From sequence record PQ351811: 64,000 bases of DNA. One strand, 5' to 3'. Position numbers and translations under genes: made by a program. Under the pieces are notes generated by a model that did not search any database, was not told the DNA's origin, and saw nothing but the letters and a program-made list of their open reading frames with translations. Positions within the stretch are counted from its first letter, which is position 1; the number at the start of each line of letters is the position of its first letter. Positions 4,294 through 58,140 of the stretch are shown piece after piece. Source of the DNA: Shigella phage SSG23.

Positions 4294-5364
4294 ATGTCTG
4301 TACTGGAAAAACTGAAAAAGAACTCTACCCTGAAAACTACTGCGGTACTGTCTAAATCCAGCTTCTTTAACGAAAAAACAAATACTCGCACTAAGATCCC
4401 GATGCTGAATATTGCGTTTTCTGGTGATCTTAAAAAAGGCTTTCAATCTGGTCTGATTTTCTTTGCTGGTCCGTCTAAGCACTTTAAATCAAACATGGGA
4501 TTAACTTGTGTTAGTGCATACATGAAACAGAATCCTGATGCGGCTTGCTTGTTCTTTGATTCTGAGTTTGGTATTACTTCCGCATATCTGGAATCTATGG
4601 GAGTAGATCCTGATCGCGTGGTGCATGTTCCAATCAAGAACATCGAAGAACTTAAATTTGAAATCATGAACCAGCTTGAGCAAATTACCCGCGAAGATAA
4701 AGTGATTATCTTTATTGACTCAATCGGTAACTTAGCAAGTAAAAAAGAAGTTGAAGACGCGATTAATGAGAAATCCGCGCAGGATATGACGCGAGCTAAA
4801 GCACTTAAAGGCTTGTTCCGTATGGTTACGCCATATCTGACTATGAATGATATCCCGTGCATCGCCATTAACCACACTTACGAAACGCAAGAAATGTTTA
4901 GTAAGACCGTTATGTCCGGCGGTACTGGCGCGATGTATTCAGCCAATGAAGTTTTCATTATCGGTCGTCGTCAGCAGAAAGAAGGAACCGAAATTACTGG
5001 TTATGATTTTATCCTGAATGCGGAAAAATCACGAACCGTTAAAGAAAAATCTAAGTTCCCGATTAGCGTAACCTTTAGCGGTGGTATCGATCCATATTCT
5101 GGCTTGCTGGAATTGGCTGTAGAGTTAGGTTGGGTAGTGAAACCGTCAAACGGCTGGTATTCTCGTTCCATCCTGAATACAGAGACCGGAGAGATGGAAA
5201 CCGAAGAACGCAAGTTCCGTGCTAAAGAAACCAATAGTATTGAGTTCTGGAAACCACTTCTGACAAACGATAAGTTTAACGAAGCAATCAACGATCATTA
5301 TAAGCTGGGACAAGTGATCAGCAATGAAGCAGTTGACAAAGAAATCGAAGATATGTTAGCATAA
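4294..5364 (+). CDS. uvsX: recombinase UvsX (RecA-like)
   Basis: 356 aa; FFNEKTNTRTKIPMLNIAFSG, Walker A FAGPSKHFKSN, DSIGNLASKKE and NHTYETQEMFSKTVMSGGTG match T4 UvsX. Confidence 0.95.
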   Translation: MSVLEKLKKNSTLKTTAVLSKSSFFNEKTNTRTKIPMLNIAFSGDLKKGFQSGLIFFAGPSKHFKSNMGLTCVSAYMKQNPDAACLFFDSEFGITSAYLESMGVDPDRVVHVPIKNIEELKFEIMNQLEQITREDKVIIFIDSIGNLASKKEVEDAINEKSAQDMTRAKALKGLFRMVTPYLTMNDIPCIAINHTYETQEMFSKTVMSGGTGAMYSANEVFIIGRRQQKEGTEITGYDFILNAEKSRTVKEKSKFPISVTFSGGIDPYSGLLELAVELGWVVKPSNGWYSRSILNTETGEMETEERKFRAKETNSIEFWKPLLTNDKFNEAINDHYKLGQVISNEAVDKEIEDMLA

Positions 5365-5375
5365 CAATGGTAGTA

Positions 5376-5397
5376 AAGGGGCTACTTGCCCCTTTTT
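5376..5397 (+). terminator. rho-independent terminator after uvsX
   Basis: Hairpin AAGGGGC-tactt-GCCCCTT followed by T-run. Confidence 0.6.
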
Positions 5398-5419
5398 CAT
5401 ATCTAGAGAGGATTATATT

Positions 5420-5737
5420 ATGGATAAGAAACCAACAAGTTTAGAAGAAGCACACGGCTTGATTCAAGAAGCAATGAAGACAGTTATTCAGGAATTGATA
5501 ATTGTTGATGAAGAGGGAGAGCATCATATTGTCTATATTCATAATGTTGAATACGATCCAGACACTAAAGGTATTGTGGTCGACTACTCCACGCCGTCAG
5601 ATCGTGATGTGGTATATCCTCACGTCATTAAGGCGTTAACCGCGCAGATCAAAGAAGCAGAAGAAAAGTTGAAAAAGGAAACTTTCTGGTATAAACTCAA
5701 GACCTTTGTTATGCGTGTAGTCGGGGGCTATGTATGA
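5420..5737 (+). CDS. hypothetical protein in the gene 40 position
   Basis: 105-aa ORF between uvsX and 41, stop overlaps 41 start; positional only. Confidence 0.4.
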   Translation: MDKKPTSLEEAHGLIQEAMKTVIQELIIVDEEGEHHIVYIHNVEYDPDTKGIVVDYSTPSDRDVVYPHVIKALTAQIKEAEEKLKKETFWYKLKTFVMRVVGGYV

Positions 5738-7146
5738 TTAAAACTATCTTTTCACAGTTGATTTACAATGGCGCATTCTTTACGAATGTATGGCCTCACC
5801 TTAAAGCGGACTACTTCACCGAAGACGAAGAAAAACTGATTTATAAGCTGATTAAAAAGCACGTAGACGAATATTCTAATATTCCTACGCCAACTGCATT
5901 ACAGATTGCTTTAGACAAGGAGAGAGGCAATCAGACAACATATGAAGGGGCTAAAACTCTTCTCGATTCGCTGGAGAATACACCGGAAGACCTTGATTGG
6001 TTAATGAAGGAAACCGAAAAATTTATCCGCGACCGCGCTATGTATAATGCAATGTCACGGGCGCTAGAGATTCAGGCGAACGCACAACTACCAAAAGAGA
6101 AACAGAATAAGAAATTGCCAAGTGAAGGCGCTATTCCTGAGATCATGCAGGAAGCACTATCCATTACGTTTGATTCTGATGTAGGTCATGACTGGTTTAA
6201 TGACTTTGAAAAACGATTCTTGTTATATCAGACTAAAGCGAATAAGATCCCGTTTAAGCTGTCTATTCTGAATAAAATCACGAAAGGCGGGGCAGAGAAA
6301 AAGACATTGAATGTTTTACTTGCTGGTGTAAACGTTGGTAAATCGTTGGGATTGTGTTCTCTTGCTGCGGATTATATGGAATGTGGTTATAATGTTCTGT
6401 ATATCTCAATGGAGATGGCAGAGCATGTCGTAGCCAAACGTATTGACGCAAATTTGCTTGACATTACCTTAGATGAATTGGATGATGGCAATGTTTCCTT
6501 TGCTGAATATTCCGCACGCATGAAACGCGTCAAGAATAAGAAAGCTGGAGAACGTCCAATCGGCAAGCTGATGATCAAACAGTATCCGACTGGTGGCGCG
6601 AACTCCAATCACTTTGAGGCGTTAATGAATGAATTGCGACTCAAGAAACAGTTTAAACCTGATGTTGTGATTGTTGACTATCTGGGGATTTGCGCATCGT
6701 CTCGCTTGCGTGTATACTCTGAAAATAGTTACACACTAGTTAAGGCTATTGCGGAAGAACTTCGCGGATTTTTTGTTAAGTGGGATGTTGTTGGTTGGAC
6801 TGCGGCACAGACTACCCGCGCGGGTTGGGATGCTTCCGACCTTAACATGAGTGATACCGCTGAATCAGCAGGTCTTCCGGCTACAGCCGATTTTATGTTG
6901 GGTGTAATTGAGACCGAAGATCTTGCAAAAATGGGTGTTCAATTACTCAAGCAGATTAAATCTCGTTACGGTGATAAGAACTATTATTCACGGTTTAACG
7001 TTGGTGTGAAAAAAGGCAATCAGCGTTGGTATGAAGTCCCAAACCAGATCGCAGATCAGGAGAATGCACAAGTTAAACCACAAAGCGCACAGCAAGCCGA
7101 GAAACGAGAAAAACTCGACGAGCTAGCAAATAACATGACTTTCTAA
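5734..7146 (+). CDS. 41: replicative helicase gp41 (DnaB-like)
   Basis: 470 aa; Walker A LLAGVNVGKS; size and position as T4 gp41. Confidence 0.9.
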   Translation: MIKTIFSQLIYNGAFFTNVWPHLKADYFTEDEEKLIYKLIKKHVDEYSNIPTPTALQIALDKERGNQTTYEGAKTLLDSLENTPEDLDWLMKETEKFIRDRAMYNAMSRALEIQANAQLPKEKQNKKLPSEGAIPEIMQEALSITFDSDVGHDWFNDFEKRFLLYQTKANKIPFKLSILNKITKGGAEKKTLNVLLAGVNVGKSLGLCSLAADYMECGYNVLYISMEMAEHVVAKRIDANLLDITLDELDDGNVSFAEYSARMKRVKNKKAGERPIGKLMIKQYPTGGANSNHFEALMNELRLKKQFKPDVVIVDYLGICASSRLRVYSENSYTLVKAIAEELRGFFVKWDVVGWTAAQTTRAGWDASDLNMSDTAESAGLPATADFMLGVIETEDLAKMGVQLLKQIKSRYGDKNYYSRFNVGVKKGNQRWYEVPNQIADQENAQVKPQSAQQAEKREKLDELANNMTF

Positions 7147-24678: not shown

Positions 24679-24853
24679 TAATATGAACTGGTATAAAATT
24701 TGGAAAAATCAGGTGGAGGCTTATCTAGGGTATAAGCCCACCGACGAAGAATTACTCGATGCAATGTACGAAGACGGACTAAATCCGAAAGTAGCCGCGC
24801 AAGAATACGCGGAATGGATGAAGGTCGAAGATAACCTAAAGGGGAAACTATGA
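24668..24853 (+). CDS. hypothetical protein
   Basis: 61-aa ORF; start uncertain (possibly 24683). Confidence 0.3.
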   Translation: MIGDNMNWYKIWKNQVEAYLGYKPTDEELLDAMYEDGLNPKVAAQEYAEWMKVEDNLKGKL

Positions 24854-25074
24854 AGAAAATGATTGCAATTGCTTTGCTGGCTAGTGCATGTACTGTAAAT
24901 GCTAATACCGCAGCGATGGTCGCGGCTGTAACTGCTGCAAATGCTTCCGTTATGGCTTCACAAGAGGCAGCACGCCAGCAAGCACAACAAGAAGCCCAGC
25001 GAAAAGCACATGAGGCGACGAAAAATTTTCACGAAAATAATAAAAAAGAAGTTGACGCCAAAGGTCGTCGGTAG
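24850..25074 (+). CDS. small secreted protein (N-terminal signal peptide)
   Basis: MKKMIAIALLASACTVNA signal-like N-terminus, Ala/Gln-rich mature part; 3' end overlaps next promoter. Confidence 0.4.
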   Translation: MKKMIAIALLASACTVNANTAAMVAAVTAANASVMASQEAARQQAQQEAQRKAHEATKNFHENNKKEVDAKGRR

Positions 25075-25080
25075 TATTAT
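25052..25080 (+). promoter_or_regulatory. PeSL-type promoter TTGACG-17-TATTAT
   Basis: Followed by ACTCCC half-palindrome and conserved leader. Confidence 0.5.
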
Positions 25081-25114
25081 ACTCCCATACCGAAACGAAC
25101 TGGAGGAAATAAAA

Positions 25115-25357
25115 ATGGTTAAAGTTAATGTTATCGAAGTTGCACTGTACGACGCTGGGATCTTCCTGAATGAAAAAGAAGCTGCCGTCCTCGACGAACT
25201 GAAAACTGTTTTTGTTCCTGTAGTAGAAGACGTAGAAGCAATCAAAATCGCTTCTCGTAAACTGTCCCATGAAGCATTTGACATGATTGATCCGGTTTTC
25301 AAAGTTATGCACGAATGCGCGGTTATGATGACCGAAGAAGAAGCGAAAAATTTCTAA
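25115..25357 (+). CDS. hypothetical protein
   Basis: 80-aa ORF from RBS-proximal ATG. Confidence 0.4.
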   Translation: MVKVNVIEVALYDAGIFLNEKEAAVLDELKTVFVPVVEDVEAIKIASRKLSHEAFDMIDPVFKVMHECAVMMTEEEAKNF

Positions 25358-25929: not shown

Positions 25930-26688
25930 ATGAAAAACATTATCGCTGCTATCGTTCTTTCTGCTACTGCTTTCGGTGCTAATGCTGCGTCCTTTGATTG
26001 CACTAAGGCTACTACCAAATCAGAGAAGTTTATTTGTGCTAATGAGTCAATCTCCGCACTGGATTCTAAACTTCATGAAGTATATGTTAAGGCCGTTAAG
26101 ATTGATCCGTCTCTGAAACAAGAGCAACGTAACTGGAATAAAACTGTTCGTGATACTATGATCAATATCGGGCAGATTCAGCCACTGGAGGCTGTATATA
26201 ACGCTCAAATCCAAAACTTGATGAATGTATTACCTAAAGAAGAAACAGCGTCAGAAAGCGATTCAGAGACTTCTGCGAAGGTTGAAAAAGAACAACCGAA
26301 ACAGGAAGCAAAAGTGGTAGAAGAACCGAAGGTTGAAACTTTTACTTATCAATGCAACATTCGCTATGAGTGGAGTATTAAAGATGGAATTTCCACCAAA
26401 ATTAAAGAAGCGCCACTGTATGCCAAATATGGAAATCAACCAGGAGATCTTCAAGTAACAATTAAAAATGGGGAAATGGTCGATTTTGTATACATTGATG
26501 AATACAACGTACACAAAGCAAACGTACAAGAAACCGTTATGACTAAAGGCGGGTTTTATAAAAATGTTGGCAAGAAAGATCTATATGAATACTCCGTTTT
26601 CGAACCAAACGACGGAACTATTCGATTTGAAAAACGTCATCCTACATTCGGTGGCGCAATTGATGTAGATCAATACGTTTGCAAGTAA
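25930..26688 (+). CDS. secreted protein with DUF1311/LprI-like (lysozyme-inhibitor family) N-terminal domain
   Basis: 252 aa; signal peptide MKNIIAAIVLSATAFGANA; FDCTKATTKSEKFICANESISALDSKLHEVY...QEQRNWNKTVRD fits DUF1311 pattern as recalled. Confidence 0.45.
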   Translation: MKNIIAAIVLSATAFGANAASFDCTKATTKSEKFICANESISALDSKLHEVYVKAVKIDPSLKQEQRNWNKTVRDTMINIGQIQPLEAVYNAQIQNLMNVLPKEETASESDSETSAKVEKEQPKQEAKVVEEPKVETFTYQCNIRYEWSIKDGISTKIKEAPLYAKYGNQPGDLQVTIKNGEMVDFVYIDEYNVHKANVQETVMTKGGFYKNVGKKDLYEYSVFEPNDGTIRFEKRHPTFGGAIDVDQYVCK

Positions 26689-28688: not shown

Positions 28689-28933
28689 AATTAGAGCAAG
28701 CGATTGTTTATTTTGAGATGGGCTATGATATTGCTCGTGTAGAATGGGAAGATGGTGATTTTGTTCGATTGATTGATCTTCCAGAAACAGCTATTGCACT
28801 GGTCAAAGTAGAAAACGGCGTACAACGAAATTACGCGTTTTCTGACGAAGACAAACAAGCCGATGACTGGTACGCTACCTGTTTTCATCATACAGCGTCA
28901 AAATTCGATTCAGGCGCGTCTATGCGTCAATAA
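28685..28933 (+). CDS. hypothetical protein
   Basis: 82-aa ORF. Confidence 0.4.
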   Translation: MKLEQAIVYFEMGYDIARVEWEDGDFVRLIDLPETAIALVKVENGVQRNYAFSDEDKQADDWYATCFHHTASKFDSGASMRQ

Positions 28934-28937
28934 AAAA

Positions 28938-28965
28938 GAAGGGGAGGCCGAAAGGCTTCCCCTTT
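28938..28965. terminator. bidirectional terminator hairpin between convergent plus-strand block and holin gene
   Basis: AAGGGGAGGCC-gaaa-GGCTTCCCCTT with A-run upstream and T-run downstream. Confidence 0.6.
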
Positions 28966-28968
28966 AAG

Positions 28969-29625
28969 TTATCTAATCCTTCCGAGGATTCTGGCAGATT
29001 GATTACAAAGAGTATCTAAATTCTCGATATCAATATCTGGTTTATTCTTCCATGCAATGGCAATACTACCAGAATAGACATTATCGAGATTGAATATAGG
29101 ACAAGAATACATGAATCCTATATCGATATTCTCTAATTTTTTCTCCCTCGATGGAATATACTGGAAATCTTTATCGGTAAAATAGGATTTACCTAAAAGA
29201 TGCCTACGATATTCTTCACTCGTTTTATTGATAGGGAATCCGCCTAAATTCTTTTCATCGATTGTATGCGGTAGCTTTCCTTCATATGCCACCAAATCAA
29301 CAAAATAGTTTAGGTTTTTCGGACGAAAACTAAAAACAGCAGAAAAATCGGCATCAGCCGACACATGAACTATCTGTAACTGCTCCTGTGCTGCATTATC
29401 AAAATTGCGGTCTTTCTCTACCTGGAGAACGTGAGCATAAGTCTCATAACGAGTCTCTTTATACAAAGCAAACAACTCGTTTTTGCTATAAACGACAAAT
29501 GCTAATATGGACAACACGACGGCAGCAAAAACACGAAGTACGAGCAACTCCGTGCTTTTAGTTGTGAAAATAGCGCGCAGGACATTTGAGATAGCAAAGT
29601 CTTTCTCTTTTTCAGAAACTTGCAT
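28969..29625 (-). CDS. t: holin T
   Basis: 218 aa; single TM then EQLQIVHVSADADFSAVFSFRPKNLNYFVDLVAYEGKLP and ARILGR match T4 holin T. Confidence 0.85.
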   Translation of the reverse strand: MQVSEKEKDFAISNVLRAIFTTKSTELLVLRVFAAVVLSILAFVVYSKNELFALYKETRYETYAHVLQVEKDRNFDNAAQEQLQIVHVSADADFSAVFSFRPKNLNYFVDLVAYEGKLPHTIDEKNLGGFPINKTSEEYRRHLLGKSYFTDKDFQYIPSREKKLENIDIGFMYSCPIFNLDNVYSGSIAIAWKNKPDIDIENLDTLCNQSARILGRIR

Positions 29626-29658
29626 ATAATGCCCTAAGATAACTATGACAGTGTACTC

Positions 29659-29898
29659 TTATTTAGGTACTTGACTATCACTAGGTTTATCTTGCTCGTT
29701 GCTATCTTCCGACTGATCTTTATTAAACTCCTTATAAAGTTCTTCCACAAAACGGTCATCAATTGGCGTATTGGTATAAGCCGCAAGACGACGAGCGCAA
29801 TAGAAGAAAATTTTAGTGAGCATCTTTTCACTAATTAACTTTGATAATAGTTTCATTCCGAAACTAGACAAAGCACCAATGACGATATTATAGACCAT
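29659..29898 (-). CDS. hypothetical small protein between gene 37 and t (not gp38-like in size)
   Basis: 79 aa, hydrophobic/amphipathic N-terminus, acidic C-terminus. Confidence 0.35.
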   Translation of the reverse strand: MVYNIVIGALSSFGMKLLSKLISEKMLTKIFFYCARRLAAYTNTPIDDRFVEELYKEFNKDQSEDSNEQDKPSDSQVPK

Positions 29899-29940
29899 AG
29901 CCGTTTCTCCTTAGTAGTTTCCCTTCCCTGGGAGTTTTCC

Positions 29941-32883
29941 TTAATTCTTTTTAAGTTCCGCTAGTTCAGCTTTAACGGCTTTCAATTCTTCGCTCATTTC
30001 CTGAAACGCCTTAATTAAAAGAGCGTTGACAGCAGAGTTAGAAATTGTTAATATCTCTTCTGGTTTATCTGGATCGCCGACCTTAGAAGTTGTTACGGCT
30101 TCCGGCAATTCTTTTTCAAGATCCTGTGCAATAATACCAACTTCATGAGCAATGACAGTACGGTCAGTTAAAGATTTAACCTTATCGTAGGTGTATACAG
30201 TCAAGCGATTAACTTTATCGGTGGCATTCTCTTTATACTCTTCCTTGTTGATTTTAAGGCGAGCATCAGAACGAATATACACATCGTTAAACGAACCGTT
30301 ACGACCTACCGACATATCACCGGAGGCGTTAAAGTCAAAGTTGGCGTCATGAACGTTTAGGCGAGCTAAAGCATTGGTAATAGTACCACTAGGAACATGT
30401 ACACCCATTGCTGCGATATGATATTTACCCCAATGCGTCGCTTTCCATACGTTATGTGCCGAGTCAACGGATTGAGGACACCCAACCATAAGGCCAGCAG
30501 CACGGTCACGCCAGCTAGCCCAACTACCGCCAGCAACTTCACCACGAATCAGGCCATTACCGCCACCAGTTACAGTACCAGCTTCCAATTGGATCATTTT
30601 ATCTGCAAATTTCCACGTCTGGGCTTGTTTCTGACCACGGAAGCGAATAACACCAGCATCATCGGAATACATCAAACCTAGTTCTAAACCGTCTGGATCT
30701 CTAAACCAGATATGCTTATTACCAGTGCGACGAAATTCAATATCAGCACCGTTCAAAAGAATATTGCCGCCAGTGTGAATTGCTTGAGGCTTAACAGTAC
30801 CGTTGATGGCAAACTCAATTGCAGAAGTACCCGGACCGCCAGGCCGTTGAGTATACCAATGCCAACCACTTTCATCTACACACTCGAAAACCTGTTTACG
30901 GGAACCACTATTACCCCATGCACGAATGTTAAAGCCAGATGTGGCTGTACCCTTGCCCCACGTTAATTTCCCTTCTGTGGTTAAATCCCCTCGGAAGTGA
31001 GCAAGCAATCCACCATCAGCATTACGTTCGGTTGTAAAATGTGTTCCTTTCGTGTCTTCAAATTGTAAAACATTATATCGTCCAGCGTTACTATTCCCCC
31101 AATGGTTAATAGTGAAAGAATCCATCGACTGATTCCCACCCGCAGAGAAAGTAAGCAATCCTTTTTCTAAGAATACATTGTTGCTAAAACGAGCAGCACG
31201 GCTATCTCTTTCGAGAACTAATGCGCCTTCGTTACCATCACCACCTAAAGTAACTTTACCATTTGTCAAATCGTAGATGAATGGTCGGTTGCCGTTCCAT
31301 CCACCAAAACGGTCATTTTCTTCTGTGGAAAGAAGATAAATTTTCGTACCGTCATTACGCCAGAATGCACCGTAATTACCAAAGATCATGCGATATGCAT
31401 CTGAGTTAGCGGAATAGTATTGTCCGTTGGTATATACAATTTTTGTTTTTCCTGTAGTCAAATTTACTTGTCCACTACCTTCCAAATCAAATGAGTTAGC
31501 ACCAACATCATTACGCCACACAAAACCATCACTAGTACCATCCGCATGACCGATATAACCACTACGTTGGTTTTTACCATCACGACGATCCCACCACGCC
31601 ATATAGGCAGCTTGATCAGTCTGGCGATGTAAAGTCATCGCATTACCACTACCGTGCAATTCCATTTTACCAGTAATTACATATCCTTTATAGCTACCAG
31701 GTATAGCACTATTAGAATCAACTCTAAGAACTTCCGTAGAATCTGTAACACCAGTAGCAAGACGATATACAGCACCCTGAACGGTTTCATGCCAAACCAT
31801 TTCATTATAGTTACTACGGAATTTACGAATATATTTCCTACCAGTACCTCTATCATTACTCAAGTGAACAATATCATAGCTATTTTGTGTGTTGTCGTCA
31901 AAACTCAACACACCTCGTTTGTTTTCGGTGTTGAAAAGAGTTACAGCGCGACCGCCAATAACATTATCGCCAGCAGGACGTTCAGCAACAAAATCTGGAA
32001 CGTCATGCACTGTTAAATTAACATCAACACTTTTACCAAATTCAACAATAACGTTATCAGTATAACGCTGATATTTCACATAGATATCATAGTTATCGCC
32101 AGAAGTGTTAACAGCCAAAACATCAAATGATTTGTTTGTATTTCGGCGATATGCAATAACGTTAACACCTTTAGGGCGATTATTTCCACTACGAATAACA
32201 ATTTCTACAATATCAACTTGATCGTATGCAGTAACGTTATATCCGTTGCCGCCATGAATACGGAAAAATACGCTACGCCCATTTTGTGGAATCATTGCAG
32301 TTGCTAATTTAAAATAGCCTTCAACGGTATCAACAGGAACTGTAGCAAGTTTAACGTTCTTAACAAACATTCTATCTACTTCTTGTTTGCTATAAACGTT
32401 CAATTCTCCTGGAGTTGGCTTATCACCTTCGTGATACATGCGGTAACTGAATCTCTTGTTGCCATCCTTATCAAAACCATAGGTTTTAACCTGAGAGGAA
32501 CTAGAACCATATTGAAATTCAAACCCGCGACCGTGTGCTTTACCGTTAGAATGAGGAATGTTCAGAATCAAGTTAGACCAACCATCAGCATTATTCGTTC
32601 GAAACGCACCAAATTTGTCAAGGTCGCGAGCGGTTGAATCGTCCATATAGTTAGCGGTTTTACCTAAAATATAGTTGTCGCCGTCAACCTTACCAGCGAA
32701 TCTAACTTGTCGGTCATAAACCGGAGGACAACTTAAATTGATAATAGCACCGGAATCATTTTTAGTAAGAAGATATTGATCCGCAAGGTTGATTGCCAAT
32801 TCCCCCGGATTCATCGTACCAGCATCAGGTCGACGACCTTTAGTGCTAGTGCGTTTAAATTGGATTCTGCTTAAATCTGCCAT
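29941..32883 (-). CDS. 37: long tail fibre distal subunit gp37 with C-terminal intramolecular chaperone (peptidase S74-like) domain
   Basis: 980 aa; N-terminus MADLSRIQFKR...GELAINL matches T4 gp37; C-terminal about 110 aa has SDARLKIN and GIIAQDLEKELPEAV. Confidence 0.8.
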   Translation of the reverse strand: MADLSRIQFKRTSTKGRRPDAGTMNPGELAINLADQYLLTKNDSGAIINLSCPPVYDRQVRFAGKVDGDNYILGKTANYMDDSTARDLDKFGAFRTNNADGWSNLILNIPHSNGKAHGRGFEFQYGSSSSQVKTYGFDKDGNKRFSYRMYHEGDKPTPGELNVYSKQEVDRMFVKNVKLATVPVDTVEGYFKLATAMIPQNGRSVFFRIHGGNGYNVTAYDQVDIVEIVIRSGNNRPKGVNVIAYRRNTNKSFDVLAVNTSGDNYDIYVKYQRYTDNVIVEFGKSVDVNLTVHDVPDFVAERPAGDNVIGGRAVTLFNTENKRGVLSFDDNTQNSYDIVHLSNDRGTGRKYIRKFRSNYNEMVWHETVQGAVYRLATGVTDSTEVLRVDSNSAIPGSYKGYVITGKMELHGSGNAMTLHRQTDQAAYMAWWDRRDGKNQRSGYIGHADGTSDGFVWRNDVGANSFDLEGSGQVNLTTGKTKIVYTNGQYYSANSDAYRMIFGNYGAFWRNDGTKIYLLSTEENDRFGGWNGNRPFIYDLTNGKVTLGGDGNEGALVLERDSRAARFSNNVFLEKGLLTFSAGGNQSMDSFTINHWGNSNAGRYNVLQFEDTKGTHFTTERNADGGLLAHFRGDLTTEGKLTWGKGTATSGFNIRAWGNSGSRKQVFECVDESGWHWYTQRPGGPGTSAIEFAINGTVKPQAIHTGGNILLNGADIEFRRTGNKHIWFRDPDGLELGLMYSDDAGVIRFRGQKQAQTWKFADKMIQLEAGTVTGGGNGLIRGEVAGGSWASWRDRAAGLMVGCPQSVDSAHNVWKATHWGKYHIAAMGVHVPSGTITNALARLNVHDANFDFNASGDMSVGRNGSFNDVYIRSDARLKINKEEYKENATDKVNRLTVYTYDKVKSLTDRTVIAHEVGIIAQDLEKELPEAVTTSKVGDPDKPEEILTISNSAVNALLIKAFQEMSEELKAVKAELAELKKN

Positions 32884-32920
32884 TTGATAAAATCCTTAAA
32901 CGGTTATTAGAATAATATTA

Positions 32921-32948
32921 TTTAGAAAAGCGGGGAGATAATCCCCGC
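32921..32948 (-). terminator. terminator-like hairpin between genes 36 and 37
   Basis: GCGGGGA-gataa-TCCCCGC; U-run on minus strand. Confidence 0.45.
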
Positions 32949-32953
32949 TAAAA

Positions 32954-34444
32954 TTAGAAAGTACCAAAATCAATCACCGCATTAAGTGGAACCGCGCCAA
33001 CCTCTGCGGGTGTCGGTTTATGGCCTTCGTGGTAAAGTTCATAGCGATCTGTGTCTTGAGTATTTCCACGCGCTTTAATGAAAACAGCTTTAGAATCGTG
33101 TGTAATACCCAATTTTTCGGTGGCTTTGATATCGCTGATACGGTGAATCATAGCCGTGCCATCGGCACTATTTAACCCAGCATAGTAGTTATCACCGTTA
33201 TATGCACCTCTAGCCGTTTTAACGCCATTTGCAGCCGGAACAGTTAACGGTCCTGTCATGGTGTCGCCAGTTACGTTAACATAGCGAATATCGGCTAATT
33301 TACGGTGATCTACATAGTTCCATGCAGTCCACGATTCATTAGAACAGGAACGCCAGCACATCGGATGGTCAATAGATTCAGGATAATACACCTGAACAAT
33401 TCGACGAGTACCGACCGCATCTTCTGGGCGGTATACCATCAAAACGCCGTTATAATAGCTATCAGACGGTTTATTAGTACCTGATCCAGCATTTTCCACA
33501 CGATAGATACCGCGATTAATAAGAGTGTTCCAATCAACGTTTCCAATGATGGTTGGATTTGCTACCATTGATTTTTTCTCAAAGTAGCTCAAACGAACCA
33601 ATTCATTAGGACCAGCAGGATCGTTTGTCGCCAACATTCTAGGCGCTTGCAAGTTACCTTCCATAATATCACCAGCACGTTTAACCTGTGCATCATTGGT
33701 GACATTACCTAGACCAACATCGGCTTTAGTTGGTTTATTGTTGGTGTGATAAAAACGACCTTCTTTGCCATTAACAAAAATGGTAGGCTCATCTTTACTT
33801 CGGAATACCAACGTATCAAGAACGTTACCATAATAGATTTTAGTGGCATCAAAATTAATTAAATCACGTCCCCTTGCAATTAATTTCGAATCAACCGATA
33901 ATTTAACTGTGACAGTGTTTAAATTATATGTTCCTGAGAGAGTATCACCGCGACGGGAGACTAAATCCAAATCATTATTCGTCGGTTTATTGACAGGGCT
34001 ATAGACGCGCTGACCTGTGTCTTTAATGGTTGTCCCTTCGATAGTCCCTTTAGACTTAAATTCGCCCGTTGTGGTGTCAATATAAGCCATGATAACACCA
34101 TCACGGGCATTAACAAAGCCGATTGACTTCCATGAATGCAAACCCCAGCTTACACCGTCAAAATTAGCGGCATCGCTCTGTCCTTTAAAAATACCGTTCT
34201 TTTTGGTTTCCCCAGCCGATGCACTACCTACGCTTAAACCTTCCTCAAAATGAACTTGCTTTTGAAATGTACCACCCTCGGATGCACTAACAGCATCAAA
34301 ATCGGTAGCCGAAGGTCTATCAAAAGCGGTATAGATTTTATGACCTTTGTAGAAAAGCTGATCTCCCGCTGGCTGGATCGTCAAGTTTCCTTGCGTCCAA
34401 ATGGGAGATCCGCCTACAGTAGATCCATGTTTCAAATCTGCCAT
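32954..34444 (-). CDS. 36: long tail fibre hinge subunit gp36 (enlarged, 496 aa)
   Basis: N-terminus MADLKHGSTVGGSPIWTQGNLTIQPAGD matches T4 gp36 (MADLKVGSTTGGSVIWHQGNF...); much longer than T4 gp36. Confidence 0.7.
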   Translation of the reverse strand: MADLKHGSTVGGSPIWTQGNLTIQPAGDQLFYKGHKIYTAFDRPSATDFDAVSASEGGTFQKQVHFEEGLSVGSASAGETKKNGIFKGQSDAANFDGVSWGLHSWKSIGFVNARDGVIMAYIDTTTGEFKSKGTIEGTTIKDTGQRVYSPVNKPTNNDLDLVSRRGDTLSGTYNLNTVTVKLSVDSKLIARGRDLINFDATKIYYGNVLDTLVFRSKDEPTIFVNGKEGRFYHTNNKPTKADVGLGNVTNDAQVKRAGDIMEGNLQAPRMLATNDPAGPNELVRLSYFEKKSMVANPTIIGNVDWNTLINRGIYRVENAGSGTNKPSDSYYNGVLMVYRPEDAVGTRRIVQVYYPESIDHPMCWRSCSNESWTAWNYVDHRKLADIRYVNVTGDTMTGPLTVPAANGVKTARGAYNGDNYYAGLNSADGTAMIHRISDIKATEKLGITHDSKAVFIKARGNTQDTDRYELYHEGHKPTPAEVGAVPLNAVIDFGTF

Positions 34445-34477
34445 AAAGTAACCTCAAAAATTAGTTATAGTTCCGAG

Positions 34478-34485
34478 TATTTATA
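34478..34485 (-). promoter_or_regulatory. T4-type late promoter TATAAATA upstream of gene 36
   Basis: Plus-strand TATTTATA 34478-34485, about 34 nt upstream of start codon at 34444. Confidence 0.6.
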
Positions 34486-34603
34486 GAATGTTAACAAAAT
34501 ATCGCTTCGCGACGTGCCGTAGGCACTGACTATTTTTTAACCGAAACAAACTTTTCTATATTCTAAAGATCTTTCTTCGTTTTGGCTACGTTTTAACCAA
34601 CTG

Positions 34604-34636
34604 TATAAAAATAAAGCCGACCACATGGATCGGCTT
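34604..34636 (-). terminator. rho-independent terminator after gene 35 (minus strand)
   Basis: Hairpin 34614-34636 nearly identical (1 mismatch in 23) to reverse complement of terminator at 24031-24053; U-run on minus strand. Confidence 0.6.
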
Positions 34637-34646
34637 GTTAAAAATG

Positions 34647-35786
34647 TTAATCAACATCGAACTCTTTAAAGTTGTTGGATGTGATATGTTTATTATCTCT
34701 AGGCAGCTTAAGAAGACTCATTACAGGGTTAGTAAAATCACCGTTATCCTGAATATGAGTTGTTCTAACACCATTAACACCAAAGGAAGTAGGACCAGTC
34801 GTTTTGACAACCCCACTGATCGGCGTTATTAGTATGTTTCTAACTTTAACAATACCTTCATTGGAGTTGGTTGGATATCTAACGCAACCAGTTACTACAC
34901 TATCAACTCCTTCCGGTACAGTATAAACAGCTTCAAACTTTTCCCATTGATCTTTTTTGCTGGCATTGTATCGAACACCAGTTTTGTATTGTCCATCAGT
35001 AAAATAGTTGTGATAGAAACGCGCTGTTACGTTAGCTGCGGCTGCGGCACTATCACGGAACAATTCAAAAGATATTGATAGTTTGTCACCCGCCTTTATG
35101 TTAAAATCTTCAAGTGGTGCGCTGATCTCATCATGAGGCCATTGTATTAGCTCGAAATGTTCGGCATCTTCGCTAACATACTCAACCGGATAATCTAAAA
35201 ATCTCTGTGGTGTTCCTGTGATCGCAAGATCATCTATAGTATCATAAACCTTCTCAATTTGTATAGACGAATCTTGTCCTTCCCCGTGGGTCGCTTGCAT
35301 ACCCTCACAAACAATTTTACCCATTTTCGTAGAATAAATTGCTGCATATGATACACGAGGCATTTGCTGTAACAAAATATGGTTAGGGAATGATACAGCC
35401 CCCAGCTTAGAGAATACATCATCGCTTACCGGGTCTGCAAACAATTCTCCATGCGTTGCCATCGCAATGATATAGTCACCTTTCAGCAAAGAAAGATAAT
35501 CACGCATTGCCAAAACAGCACCCCGACCATAGAATACCTTTTCTTCGTGTAGTTGTCCAGTTTGGGTAAGAACTTTAAAATTTAGGCCAGTTTCATAGCC
35601 AGTCCCGACGATCTCCACTCCATTAAATCTAATCCTTGCTGGTTTGGTAGAATCCGCATTAGATCCGCGTACTTCCAGCTTATACATCACAGAGTTGTTT
35701 TCTGAAATGCTTGTAAATGTCGCGGAGTCCTCATCGAAATGCGCAAATTTAATTCCAGTGTTGCGTAATTCTATCTCTTGTGTCAT
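34647..35786 (-). CDS. 35: tail fibre protein in the gp35 (hinge connector) position
   Basis: 379 aa between gp34 and gp36 homologs, same size class as T4 gp35; not sequence-confirmed. Confidence 0.5.
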   Translation of the reverse strand: MTQEIELRNTGIKFAHFDEDSATFTSISENNSVMYKLEVRGSNADSTKPARIRFNGVEIVGTGYETGLNFKVLTQTGQLHEEKVFYGRGAVLAMRDYLSLLKGDYIIAMATHGELFADPVSDDVFSKLGAVSFPNHILLQQMPRVSYAAIYSTKMGKIVCEGMQATHGEGQDSSIQIEKVYDTIDDLAITGTPQRFLDYPVEYVSEDAEHFELIQWPHDEISAPLEDFNIKAGDKLSISFELFRDSAAAAANVTARFYHNYFTDGQYKTGVRYNASKKDQWEKFEAVYTVPEGVDSVVTGCVRYPTNSNEGIVKVRNILITPISGVVKTTGPTSFGVNGVRTTHIQDNGDFTNPVMSLLKLPRDNKHITSNNFKEFDVD

Positions 35787-50468: not shown

Positions 50469-51635
50469 ATGGGAAATACGGTATTTAATCGTGAACATGT
50501 TGATATTATGAATGAACCGATGTTTCTGGGTAGCGGTTTAGGTATCGCTCGTTATGACATTCAGCGTCATCAAGTATTTGAAGAACTAATTGAAAAATCT
50601 CTGTCATTTTTCTGGCGTCCAGAAGAGATTTCACTTGCAACTGACCGCATTCAATATCTGAATATGGGCGATGTTGAAAAACGTTTCTTTACAGAAAACT
50701 TGAAGTATCAGACATTACTTGATTCTATTCAAGGTCGCGCACCATCCGCAGCATTTGGTCCAATTGTATCTGATCCGACTCTCGATACATGGTTGCAAAC
50801 ATGGACATTCAGCGAGACAATTCATAGCCGCAGTTATACTCACATTATGCGTAACTGTTTCATTGATCCGGCTAGTGAGTTTGACCAGATCATCGATAAC
50901 CCTGCTATCATGAAGCGAGCGGAATCTATCGGGCAATATTATGATGATGTTCTTTATTGGATTCGTAAGTATGAGAATGCAAAAGAAGATCTCCGCTATT
51001 GGGAAGAACGAGACGACCAGACAGCATTAGATGATGCAAGAAGAGTTTTTGAAGATACAAAACGAGATCTGATGGCGTCGATTTATCTGTGTGCACACTG
51101 CGTTAATGCACTGGAAGCAATCCGTTTTTATGTATCCTTTGCATGTACTTTCAGCTTTGCCGAACGTGGTTTACTGGAAGGTAACGCGAAGATCATGAAA
51201 TTTATTGCGCGTGATGAACAACTTCACTTAAAAGGTACACAATACATTATTCGTCAATGGCAAACGGGGGCTGACGGTGATGAGTGGAAACAGATTGCGG
51301 AAGAACTTGAAGACGAAGCAACGAAAATCTTTCTGGATGTTGTCGAGCAAGAAAAAGAATGGGTAGACCACCTATTCGCAATGGGGGCAATTCCTAACCT
51401 GTCACCGGAAATTCTGAAAACCTATGTAGAATACCTGGCAGATTCCCGTATGCGTGCTGCCGGACTGAAAAGCCCGTTTAGTGTTCGTCGTCATCCTTTA
51501 CCGTGGATGCGTAAGTGGTTAAACTCTGACGAAGTTCAAAACGCGGCGCAAGAAGTAGAGATCATGTATCTGGTATCTCAGGTTAATACCGATTTAACAG
51601 ACGACGACTACAACCGATTCGGGAAATATCTATGA
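50469..51635 (+). CDS. nrdB: ribonucleotide reductase small subunit NrdB
   Basis: 388 aa; VDIMNEPMFLGSGLGIARYDIQRHQVFEEL matches T4 NrdB N-terminus; uninterrupted (no intron). Confidence 0.9.
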   Translation: MGNTVFNREHVDIMNEPMFLGSGLGIARYDIQRHQVFEELIEKSLSFFWRPEEISLATDRIQYLNMGDVEKRFFTENLKYQTLLDSIQGRAPSAAFGPIVSDPTLDTWLQTWTFSETIHSRSYTHIMRNCFIDPASEFDQIIDNPAIMKRAESIGQYYDDVLYWIRKYENAKEDLRYWEERDDQTALDDARRVFEDTKRDLMASIYLCAHCVNALEAIRFYVSFACTFSFAERGLLEGNAKIMKFIARDEQLHLKGTQYIIRQWQTGADGDEWKQIAEELEDEATKIFLDVVEQEKEWVDHLFAMGAIPNLSPEILKTYVEYLADSRMRAAGLKSPFSVRRHPLPWMRKWLNSDEVQNAAQEVEIMYLVSQVNTDLTDDDYNRFGKYL

Positions 51636-54839: not shown

Positions 54840-55163
54840 ATGTCAAAGCTGATATACGTTGTTATCATATCTGTGTTGCTGGGGGTAGGCGGCAATATGT
54901 GGTGGGAAAATAAGAAGGAGGTGGACCGATTAAATCAGGAATTTACAGAGTATAAGAAAAAGACAGATGAAAAGATGAAGGTCGTAGACTCACTACAAAA
55001 GGAGATGTACGGGATAAGAACTAAGTTCGCGGAAGAACAAAACAAAGCAATGAAAGACGCTACGCGAGGCTATGTAGTAGCACAAAAACCTAAGTTGGTA
55101 GAGAAACAGCTTAATGATTCATTTAAGGAGTTTACCGAAGAATTAAAGGAGGCGACTAAATGA
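54840..55163 (+). CDS. putative i-spanin (N-terminal TM + coiled coil)
   Basis: 107 aa; TM LIYVVIISVLLGVGG then charged helical region; position next to pseT as T4 pseT.3. Confidence 0.45.
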   Translation: MSKLIYVVIISVLLGVGGNMWWENKKEVDRLNQEFTEYKKKTDEKMKVVDSLQKEMYGIRTKFAEEQNKAMKDATRGYVVAQKPKLVEKQLNDSFKEFTEELKEATK

Positions 55164-55612
55164 GCATAGAAATATTGCCTACGCAAGAGCAGATAAGCAA
55201 TTTTAATCTGGTTGATTATCTGGGGATAGGTGCAAGCATTATTATCCTGATGGTGTTTTCAATTTTCGTAATACATTGGATGTTTAAGAAAGCACATAAG
55301 AATTTCCAGACCGCCATAATCCATGTTTTTGCTGTACCGATTGTATTTGCGCTTTCTTCATGTACAATGGACCATTATTCACAGGAACCGAAATTACATC
55401 CACCACTACCAGCACCAATAGAAAAAGTTGACATTGACCTGAATGTGGATACAATAGACGGTAAGCCTAGAGTTTCTATGTCGTGGGAGGACTCCCAAAA
55501 ATTTAGAGTCTGGTTGGCTGATATTAAGAGATATACACTTGAAAGTAAGTTGATCATGTGTTATTATCGCAAAGAACTCAATGAGGAACGGTGTAAACCG
55601 AAGGAGAAATAA
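55160..55612 (+). CDS. putative o-spanin (lipoprotein); start uncertain
   Basis: Internal signal plus lipobox FALSSC; possible true start at an internal ATG near 55280. Confidence 0.4.
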   Translation: MSIEILPTQEQISNFNLVDYLGIGASIIILMVFSIFVIHWMFKKAHKNFQTAIIHVFAVPIVFALSSCTMDHYSQEPKLHPPLPAPIEKVDIDLNVDTIDGKPRVSMSWEDSQKFRVWLADIKRYTLESKLIMCYYRKELNEERCKPKEK

Positions 55613-57975: not shown

Positions 57976-58140
57976 ATGAAAACTATGAATGTAAACATCC
58001 ACGAAATCCATACCGAAGTATTCACCGAAGAAGACCAGTTTGGTGTATGGGTAAATCCTCACTCGATTACTATCGATATTCCTCATGACGATTACGATCC
58101 GTTCTCTATGATTAGCGAGATTAGTTTCAATGACTTCTGA
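57976..58140 (+). CDS. hypothetical 54-aa protein
   Basis: RBS-preceded ATG; below ORF-track cutoff. Confidence 0.3.
   Translation: MKTMNVNIHEIHTEVFTEEDQFGVWVNPHSITIDIPHDDYDPFSMISEISFNDF

Follow-up and report, generated by a model that had tools for sequence, protein, structure and literature searches.

The 79-amino-acid open reading frame (ORF) that lies between the tail fibre gene 37 and the holin gene t of Shigella phage SSG23 is, on the evidence of profile comparisons, a real and conserved homologue of the lysis protein P18 of phage PM2, and we put the chance that it encodes a late-expressed accessory lysis factor at slightly better than even (roughly 55%). The protein is a member of the P18 family, its gene has a late-operon place directly upstream of the holin gene, and it is conserved as a single copy across Krischvirus. 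The kinship to PM2 P18 is itself already known, as it was published in 2007, when P18 homologues were listed in RB49, Felix O1, PaP3, P-SSM4, S-PM2 and P-SSM2 (Krupovic and Bamford 2007). In the current SFHK24 and RB49 records the gene is still named 'hypothetical protein', and PHROG 402, the protein cluster to which it belongs, is still labelled 'unknown function'.

The window, by which we mean the whole stretch of 64,000 bases that was analysed, corresponds to positions 76162-140161 of phage SFHK24 (PQ351812.1; Straboviridae, Krischvirus) with 0 mismatches, and because of this identity knowledge of RB49-like phages applies to it. A megablast search with window positions 28900-33000 matched SFHK24 at 100% identity and RB49 together with about 60 relatives at 80-99%. 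The gene order on the minus strand is gp37, the 79-residue ORF and holin t, confirming where the earlier, sequence-only reading of this DNA had placed the ORF. The features on which the argument draws are as follows.

29659-29898, minus strand: the 79-residue ORF with its ATG start, orthologue of RB49ORF251w/'dc5' and member of the PM2 P18 (gp l) family (PF26925 / PHROG 402)
29907-29912, minus strand: Shine-Dalgarno sequence AAGGAG of the 79-residue ORF, 8 nt 5' of the ATG
28969-29625, minus strand: holin T, 218 residues, 33 nt downstream of the 79-residue ORF (PF11031, E 4.9e-61; phrog_860, E 3.2e-88)
29941-32883, minus strand: gp37, the distal subunit of the long tail fibre, 980 residues, 42 nt upstream of the 79-residue ORF (phrog_1699, E 5.4e-171; Gp34_trimer and Peptidase_S74 domains)
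30091-30270, minus strand: C-terminal Peptidase_S74 intramolecular chaperone domain of gp37, residues 872-931 (PF13884, E 1.4e-11)
34478-34485, minus strand: consensus TATAAATA of a T4-type late promoter, 5' of gene 36; no second perfect match occurs on the minus strand from 28900 to 35000
54840-55163, plus strand: i-spanin gene of a pseT.3/pseT.2-type two-component pair (SFHK24 annotation)
55160-55612, plus strand: o-spanin gene of the same pair (SFHK24 annotation)

The pseT.3/pseT.2 genes of RB49 are counted as spanins (Kongari et al. 2018), and the spanin genes at 54840-55612 therefore mean that a canonical outer-membrane disruption system is already present in this phage. SFHK24 is also annotated with an endolysin and with a gp57A-like 'tail fiber chaperone'.

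Several observations speak against a chance reading frame at 29659-29898: the 79-residue ORF has a strong Shine-Dalgarno sequence, it is annotated as a CDS in both SFHK24 and RB49, it is present at 90% identity or more in 58 Krischvirus records, and homologues with 25-46% identity are found in unrelated phage groups. The P18-like gene is single-copy in SFHK24. RB49 has two entries for the ORF, RB49ORF251w (79 residues) and 'dc5' (65 residues, from an internal ATG), and we favour the long form because the 14 N-terminal residues are kept in distant homologues. With respect to expression, the TATAAATA promoter at 34478-34485 is likely to be the start of a late transcript that runs through 36, 37, the ORF and t. 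A scan of minus-strand sequence signals gave no terminator-like hairpin between gp37, the ORF and t, and the only terminator-like site near the ORF on that strand, in the stretch from the promoter to the stop codon of t, is weak and lies inside the t coding sequence. Given this lone promoter and the lack of a terminator, the ORF is most simply read as part of the late 36-37-ORF-t transcript.

Other genes on the plus strand of the window were noted in passing. An unannotated 74-residue ORF at 24850-25074 has a signal-peptide-like or lipoprotein-like N-terminus (MKKMIAIALLASAC...). It overlaps the following CDS in its long, annotated version (24941-25357); translation of that CDS may really begin at an internal MVKV... 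codon. A hypothetical protein of 252 residues (25930-26688) begins with an evident signal peptide (MKNIIAAIVLSATAFGANA/AS), carries a linker rich in Lys and Glu, and has a secreted or periplasmic look; its gene lies in the early-gene cluster upstream of t. Between 24070 and 25140, frames extended upstream of several small early genes give near-identical peptides (HPYQTKGDSKM, ILPYQTKGESKM, ILPYRNELEEIKM), which implies that a DNA element, probably a promoter/RBS unit, recurs before successive ORFs.

Profile searches, which the sequence-only reading had proposed as a check, place the 79-residue protein in PHROG 402 (E 5.5e-20) and revealed no gp38 similarity; PM2 gp l matches the same cluster (E 8.2e-14). 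The Pfam family PF26925 (Phage_PM2_Gpl) is precomputed on 15 of 15 close homologues from a set of 5.8 billion proteins, and on distant ones as well. Our direct scans used a Pfam copy that predates PF26925, in which PM2 gp l itself is unmatched, and scans of the ORF with this copy and with NCBIfam gave noise only. When the 51-residue PM2 gp l sequence (taken from NC_000867) was scored against a family profile built without PM2 it reached 32 bits, and hhalign aligned it with residues 17-59 of the 79-residue protein at a probability of 95.5% (E 1.6e-8, 43 columns). A HMMER search over 1.84 billion representatives revealed 19 clusters at E<=1e-3, with members of 61-87 residues in all but one, and about 400 phage genomes carry the family.

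The family has a common layout, in which a hydrophobic first helix ends in a near-invariant Glu and is followed by a second helix, a T-x-T-x-x-D-D turn and a third helix. Most members carry a Phe-Phe pair in the second helix, and in an alignment of 27 sequences T42 and D47 are invariant while E24 and D48 are conserved in at least 90%. One candidate homologue, P0018 (JGI metagenome, 196 residues), was dropped, as it matched the profile only through a repeated TDTPxD turn motif. P0018 looks secreted, contains six tandem copies of YKYTDTPADKRSVDDLHKR and is likely unrelated to the P18 family. Matches of the family profile in the PDB were likewise set aside, being only designed helical-repeat proteins that reflect a generic helix-loop-helix signal.

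The amphipathic N-terminus and acidic tail that had been described from the sequence are both borne out. The N-terminal helix is hydrophobic and amphipathic, with a Kyte-Doolittle maximum of 1.45 over 19 residues and a hydrophobic moment of up to 0.39, and residues 59-79 have a net charge of -3 and are predicted to be disordered (pLDDT <50 at residues 65-76). The hydrophobic segment falls below the usual transmembrane threshold; values in the family range from 0.95 to 2.11, and the helix of the T4-like homologue at 0.95 is clearly not transmembrane. The acidic tail is found only in the Krischvirus lineage, where it varies, and the protein as a whole is about neutral (net charge -1) with a charged C-terminus. 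For a comparison with holins, which have one or more true transmembrane domains as well as a charged C-terminus, the values to set side by side are thus the 1.45 and that charged end, in a phage that already encodes holin T. An AlphaFold2 (AF2) model, of low confidence (pLDDT 64), predicts helices at residues 2-21, 24-41 and 46-62 ahead of the disordered tail. No signal peptide and no lipobox were found in the protein, the single Cys of which is at position 34, inside helix 2; this, together with the basic residues after helix 1, suggests a protein that is cytoplasmic or on the inner leaflet. It is also not spanin-like, having no lipobox and a hydrophobic segment of sub-transmembrane strength, in a genome where recognised spanins are encoded at 54840-55612. 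A Foldseek search of the AF2 model against BFVD gave a significant match only to the ECD7 orthologue, along with weak, non-significant matches to small cyanophage proteins that were given no weight.

What the family is known to do comes from PM2, where P17 (gp k) makes the cytoplasmic membrane permeable and outer-membrane disruption requires P18, according to reviews that summarise Krupovic et al. 2007 (PMC6356626, PMC9502842). In such summaries the peptidoglycan of the PM2 host is probably degraded by host enzymes. The sequence-only reading had suggested a lysis regulator or a fibre accessory factor; of these the lysis-related guess is the better one, since the protein is a P18 homologue, although 'regulator' fits only loosely a family whose described role is outer-membrane disruption. 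A published list of 'spanin-less' phages includes PM2, PaP3, P-SSM2, P-SSM4 and S-PM2 (Kongari et al. 2018), and these P18 carriers fit, suggestively, with the P18 family supplying outer-membrane disruption in those phages. Two-component spanins are present in RB49 and Felix O1 (Kongari et al. 2018), and this counts against a lysis role, since Krischvirus and Felix O1 have no evident need of a further, P18-like disruptor of the outer membrane. Also counted against it are the borderline hydrophobicity of the N-terminal helix, the near-neutral net charge (-1), which sets the protein apart from the cationic peptides known to disrupt membranes, and the low confidence of the model.

The steps by which the 79-residue protein might act in lysis are modelled on PM2 genetics as summarised in the reviews. 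The P18-like protein, having no signal peptide, would accumulate in the cytoplasm or, through its N-terminal helix, on the inner membrane face, and would reach the envelope only once holin T permeabilises the inner membrane. It might then help to destabilise the outer membrane, either beside the pseT.3/pseT.2 spanins or as a back-up to them, for instance where divalent cations have made that membrane stiffer. T-type holins release the cytoplasmic endolysin in T4 lysis, and the same route to the periplasm and outer membrane could be open to a small protein that is soluble or peripheral.

The gene neighbourhoods of P18-like genes bear on this reading in a mixed but mostly supportive way. In Krischvirus and in a sister T4-like lineage the P18-like gene is directly upstream of holin T, and between that lineage and this phage the holins are 67% identical and the P18-like proteins 42%; this synteny is shared by descent and is not independent evidence. 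In Vibrio phage 1.144.O and the metagenomic phage L016 the P18-like gene is directly 3' of the endolysin gene (phrog_315 in L016, where it is preceded by a gene for a small transmembrane protein), and in PM2 gp l comes directly after the holin-like gp k. Lysis cassettes thus account for about half of the independent P18-like contexts. A further endolysin context, in the T7-like contig L014, was not counted: the 137-residue protein encoded upstream is M15-peptidase-like by eye, with no Pfam or PHROG match.

The remaining contexts are counted against a lysis role. In Felixounavirus the P18-like gene directly follows a tail-fibre gene, or overlaps it by ATGA, and a gene for a protein of 123-133 residues with a transmembrane segment and a coiled coil lies downstream. 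In PaP3 (ORF.10), Cronobacter phage A24 and Aeromonas phage LAh_8 the P18-like gene is found among the structural genes, at a distance from any annotated lysis gene, with a structural or needle-knob-like protein of about 190-210 residues on one side and tail genes on the other. Late expression is most plausibly the feature that all of these contexts share, though there might be more to the recurrent place just behind fibre or structural genes.

The Felix O1-like downstream protein deserves a separate description. It is encoded at 5187-5558 of contig L006 (ORF076 of Escherichia phage Alf5) and at 4356-4757 of contig L017, has an N-terminal transmembrane segment and a long coiled coil, and belongs to phrog_4038. 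A 35-residue ORF with a lipobox-like LLGC is embedded in its +1 frame (L006 5221-5328), an arrangement that is spanin-like or holin-like. The 123-residue protein that follows the Felix O1-type homologue was considered as the known i-spanin and rejected, as the published spanins are at 5330-5841 of NC_005282.

These fibre-side and structural-side neighbourhoods also favour an alternative in which the 79-residue protein is a tail-fibre or virion accessory that helps to assemble, stabilise or decorate the fibre or tail, or is itself a minor virion component. The ORF immediately follows gp37 in what reads as the same late operon, and the Felixounavirus, PaP3, A24 and LAh_8 placements add to the case. 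However, PM2 P18 is described as a lysis factor in the PM2 summaries, where it is grouped apart from the structural proteins P1-P10, and other homologues adjoin endolysin genes with no fibre gene nearby. Known fibre helpers are moreover already present in this phage, namely the S74 domain of gp37, the gp57A-like chaperone and gp38, and the PaP3 record, which flags some ORFs as 'constituent protein', does not do so for ORF.10. We regard a fibre or virion role as unlikely, though it is the main rival to the lysis reading.

More doubtful again is that the protein acts on holin T itself, as an antiholin-like or timing cofactor that would bind the cytoplasmic N-terminus of T, analogous to T4 RIII. 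Its gene is adjacent to t, and by its position apparently co-transcribed with it, in two T4-like lineages; the protein is small and helical, with basic residues after the first helix that suggest a cytoplasmic C-terminal part; and RB49 has no annotated rIII beside gene 31, its place in T4. Yet the two T4-like cases are synteny by descent, the protein resembles neither T nor T4 RIII in sequence, the latter giving no reportable match to the P18 family profile, and the family occurs in phages whose holins are unrelated or not identified (PM2, Felix O1, PaP3 and Vibrio phages). The reviews, moreover, give the requirement for P18 in PM2 as outer-membrane disruption, not timing. RB49-like phages as a group carry no rIII annotation beside gene 31, and the region concerned (RB49 126078-126325, equivalent to 4079-4326 of contig L019; about 57976-58140 of the window) contains only a 54-residue hypothetical ORF and 30.3 between genes 31 and 30.

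Small phage proteins such as T5 Llp and phi80 Cor act in superinfection exclusion or receptor masking. A membrane-anchored protein of that kind could be imagined here, given the small size, the hydrophobic N-terminus and the place beside fibre genes in several lineages, but it is very improbable: the 79-residue protein has neither signal peptide nor lipobox, its gene is part of a late operon, while early action is usual for exclusion proteins, and the family spans hosts with different receptors and is linked to lysis in PM2.

The position of the ORF also raises the matter of gp38, since the sequence-only reading had held that this phage has no gp38-like adhesin or chaperone gene. That claim stands for the slot between 37 and t and for the window, across which the SFHK24 annotation has no gp38-like product, and fails for the genome. 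A gp38 adhesin of 259 residues is encoded at SFHK24 50572-51351 (plus strand), about 25 kb before the window start and about 55 kb from gene 37, and it matches PF05268 GP38 (E 2.6e-73), PF21721 Gp38_N (E 6.1e-18) and the phage S16 gp38 structure 6f45_D (E 1e-50). Two hypothetical late genes of SFHK24 between 23 and 24 (310 and 576 residues) were also considered, and neither is gp38. The displacement of gp38 in RB49 was described by Trojet et al. 2011, so that both the displacement and the small ORF in its place are already documented for that phage. RB49 gp38 is the receptor-binding protein, to which host-range mutations map, and in RB49, as in most T-even-like phages, gp37 has a chaperone domain that cleaves itself off, and gp38 attaches once this domain is gone (PMC9569957). 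Thus gp37 does carry a chaperone domain of its own, as had been supposed, but its presence does not argue for an absent gp38, since the two usually co-occur (PMC9569957): the S74 domain replaces only the T4-type gp38 chaperone, not the adhesin, and accompanies gp38-adhesin fibres.

The displaced gp38 region (SFHK24 50472-51460, contig L011 472-1460) lies on the early/middle-gene strand and has on both sides GC-rich hairpins with T-runs after them. No TATAAATA late promoter was found within about 570 bases upstream, which reaches to the start of the contig, and the whole has the look of an insulated cassette.

The 79-residue ORF shares with the gp38 adhesins of T2 and T6 (the T2/T6/S16 type, PF05268 plus PF21721) the slot downstream of 37 and upstream of t, but has no sequence match to them, no glycine-rich motifs and one third of their size. 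The T4 gp38 chaperone (183 residues) occupies the same slot and has in common with the ORF the heptapeptide EELYKEF, which is found at residues 52-58 of the ORF (window 29725-29745, minus strand) and at residues 117-123 of gp38 in T4 NC_000866 (contig L020 1150-1701). In this region 10 of 19 residues (pairwise BLASTP E 0.001) and 17 of 21 nucleotides are identical, and a shared 7-mer arose in 0 of 20,000 shuffles. We nevertheless treat the sharing as probably a coincidence, because among P18-family proteins the heptapeptide is Krischvirus-specific and the rest does not align; the likeness to the T4 chaperone, whose role is taken here by the gp37 S74 domain, goes no further. A degenerate or miniature gp38, of T4 chaperone or T2 adhesin type, left in its ancestral slot is therefore close to refuted as far as sequence can tell, for all that the ORF has the g38 position and the heptapeptide: a Pfam scan at E<=1 gave no GP38 or Gp38_N match to the 79-residue protein while the 259-residue SFHK24 protein served as positive control, the P18 family profile scores T4 gp38 at only 1.1 bits, the protein has 2 glycines in 79 residues, the EELYKEF helix is typical of the family although Felix O1, PM2 and the sister T4-like lineage have other residues there, and over its full length the protein aligns with P18-family members of phages without a gene 38 context.

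Returning to the accessory lysis factor, a broader generalisation can be offered, tentatively and with the expectation that it may well not hold, in which P18-like proteins would be common among phages and would, as a class independent of spanins, disrupt the outer membrane or otherwise assist lysis. They could then be the missing disruptor of several 'spanin-less' phages (PM2, PaP3 and the cyanomyoviruses P-SSM2, P-SSM4 and S-PM2) and a second, condition-dependent system in Krischvirus and Felix O1-like phages. If the family were indeed a general outer-membrane lysis factor, this would bear on how 'spanin-less' phages leave their hosts.

Among known systems, the phiKT gp28 'disruptin' resembles the 79-residue protein in being small, in having no signal sequence and in being encoded beside a holin or endolysin gene. 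For gp28, a preprint (10.1101/515445) proposes an outer-membrane action after holin and endolysin, as we propose for the 79-residue protein. The two nevertheless differ in several respects. The phiKT protein is cationic, with a net charge of +7, whereas the P18-like family ranges from -3 to +4 and the 79-residue protein has -1, so any membrane activity of the latter would work differently. An hhalign comparison of the two gave a probability of 0.1% and no sequence similarity, and phiKT is without spanins, which gp28 replaces, whereas the phage of the window has them.

PM2 P18 itself, the product gp l of gene XVIII, is the closer comparison. It matches the 79-residue protein significantly, the E...T-x-T-x-x-D-D region and a helix-turn-helix C-terminal core are found in both, and both genes lie in late operons beside a gene for a membrane-permeabilising lysis protein. 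P18 has 51 residues as against 79, and the longer protein has about 8 extra hydrophobic residues at its N-terminus and a 20-residue acidic, disordered tail, both without counterpart in PM2. Finally, PM2 is in the spanin-less list and had no recognised endolysin in the 2007 report, whereas the phage of the window is equipped with spanins, a T holin and an annotated endolysin.
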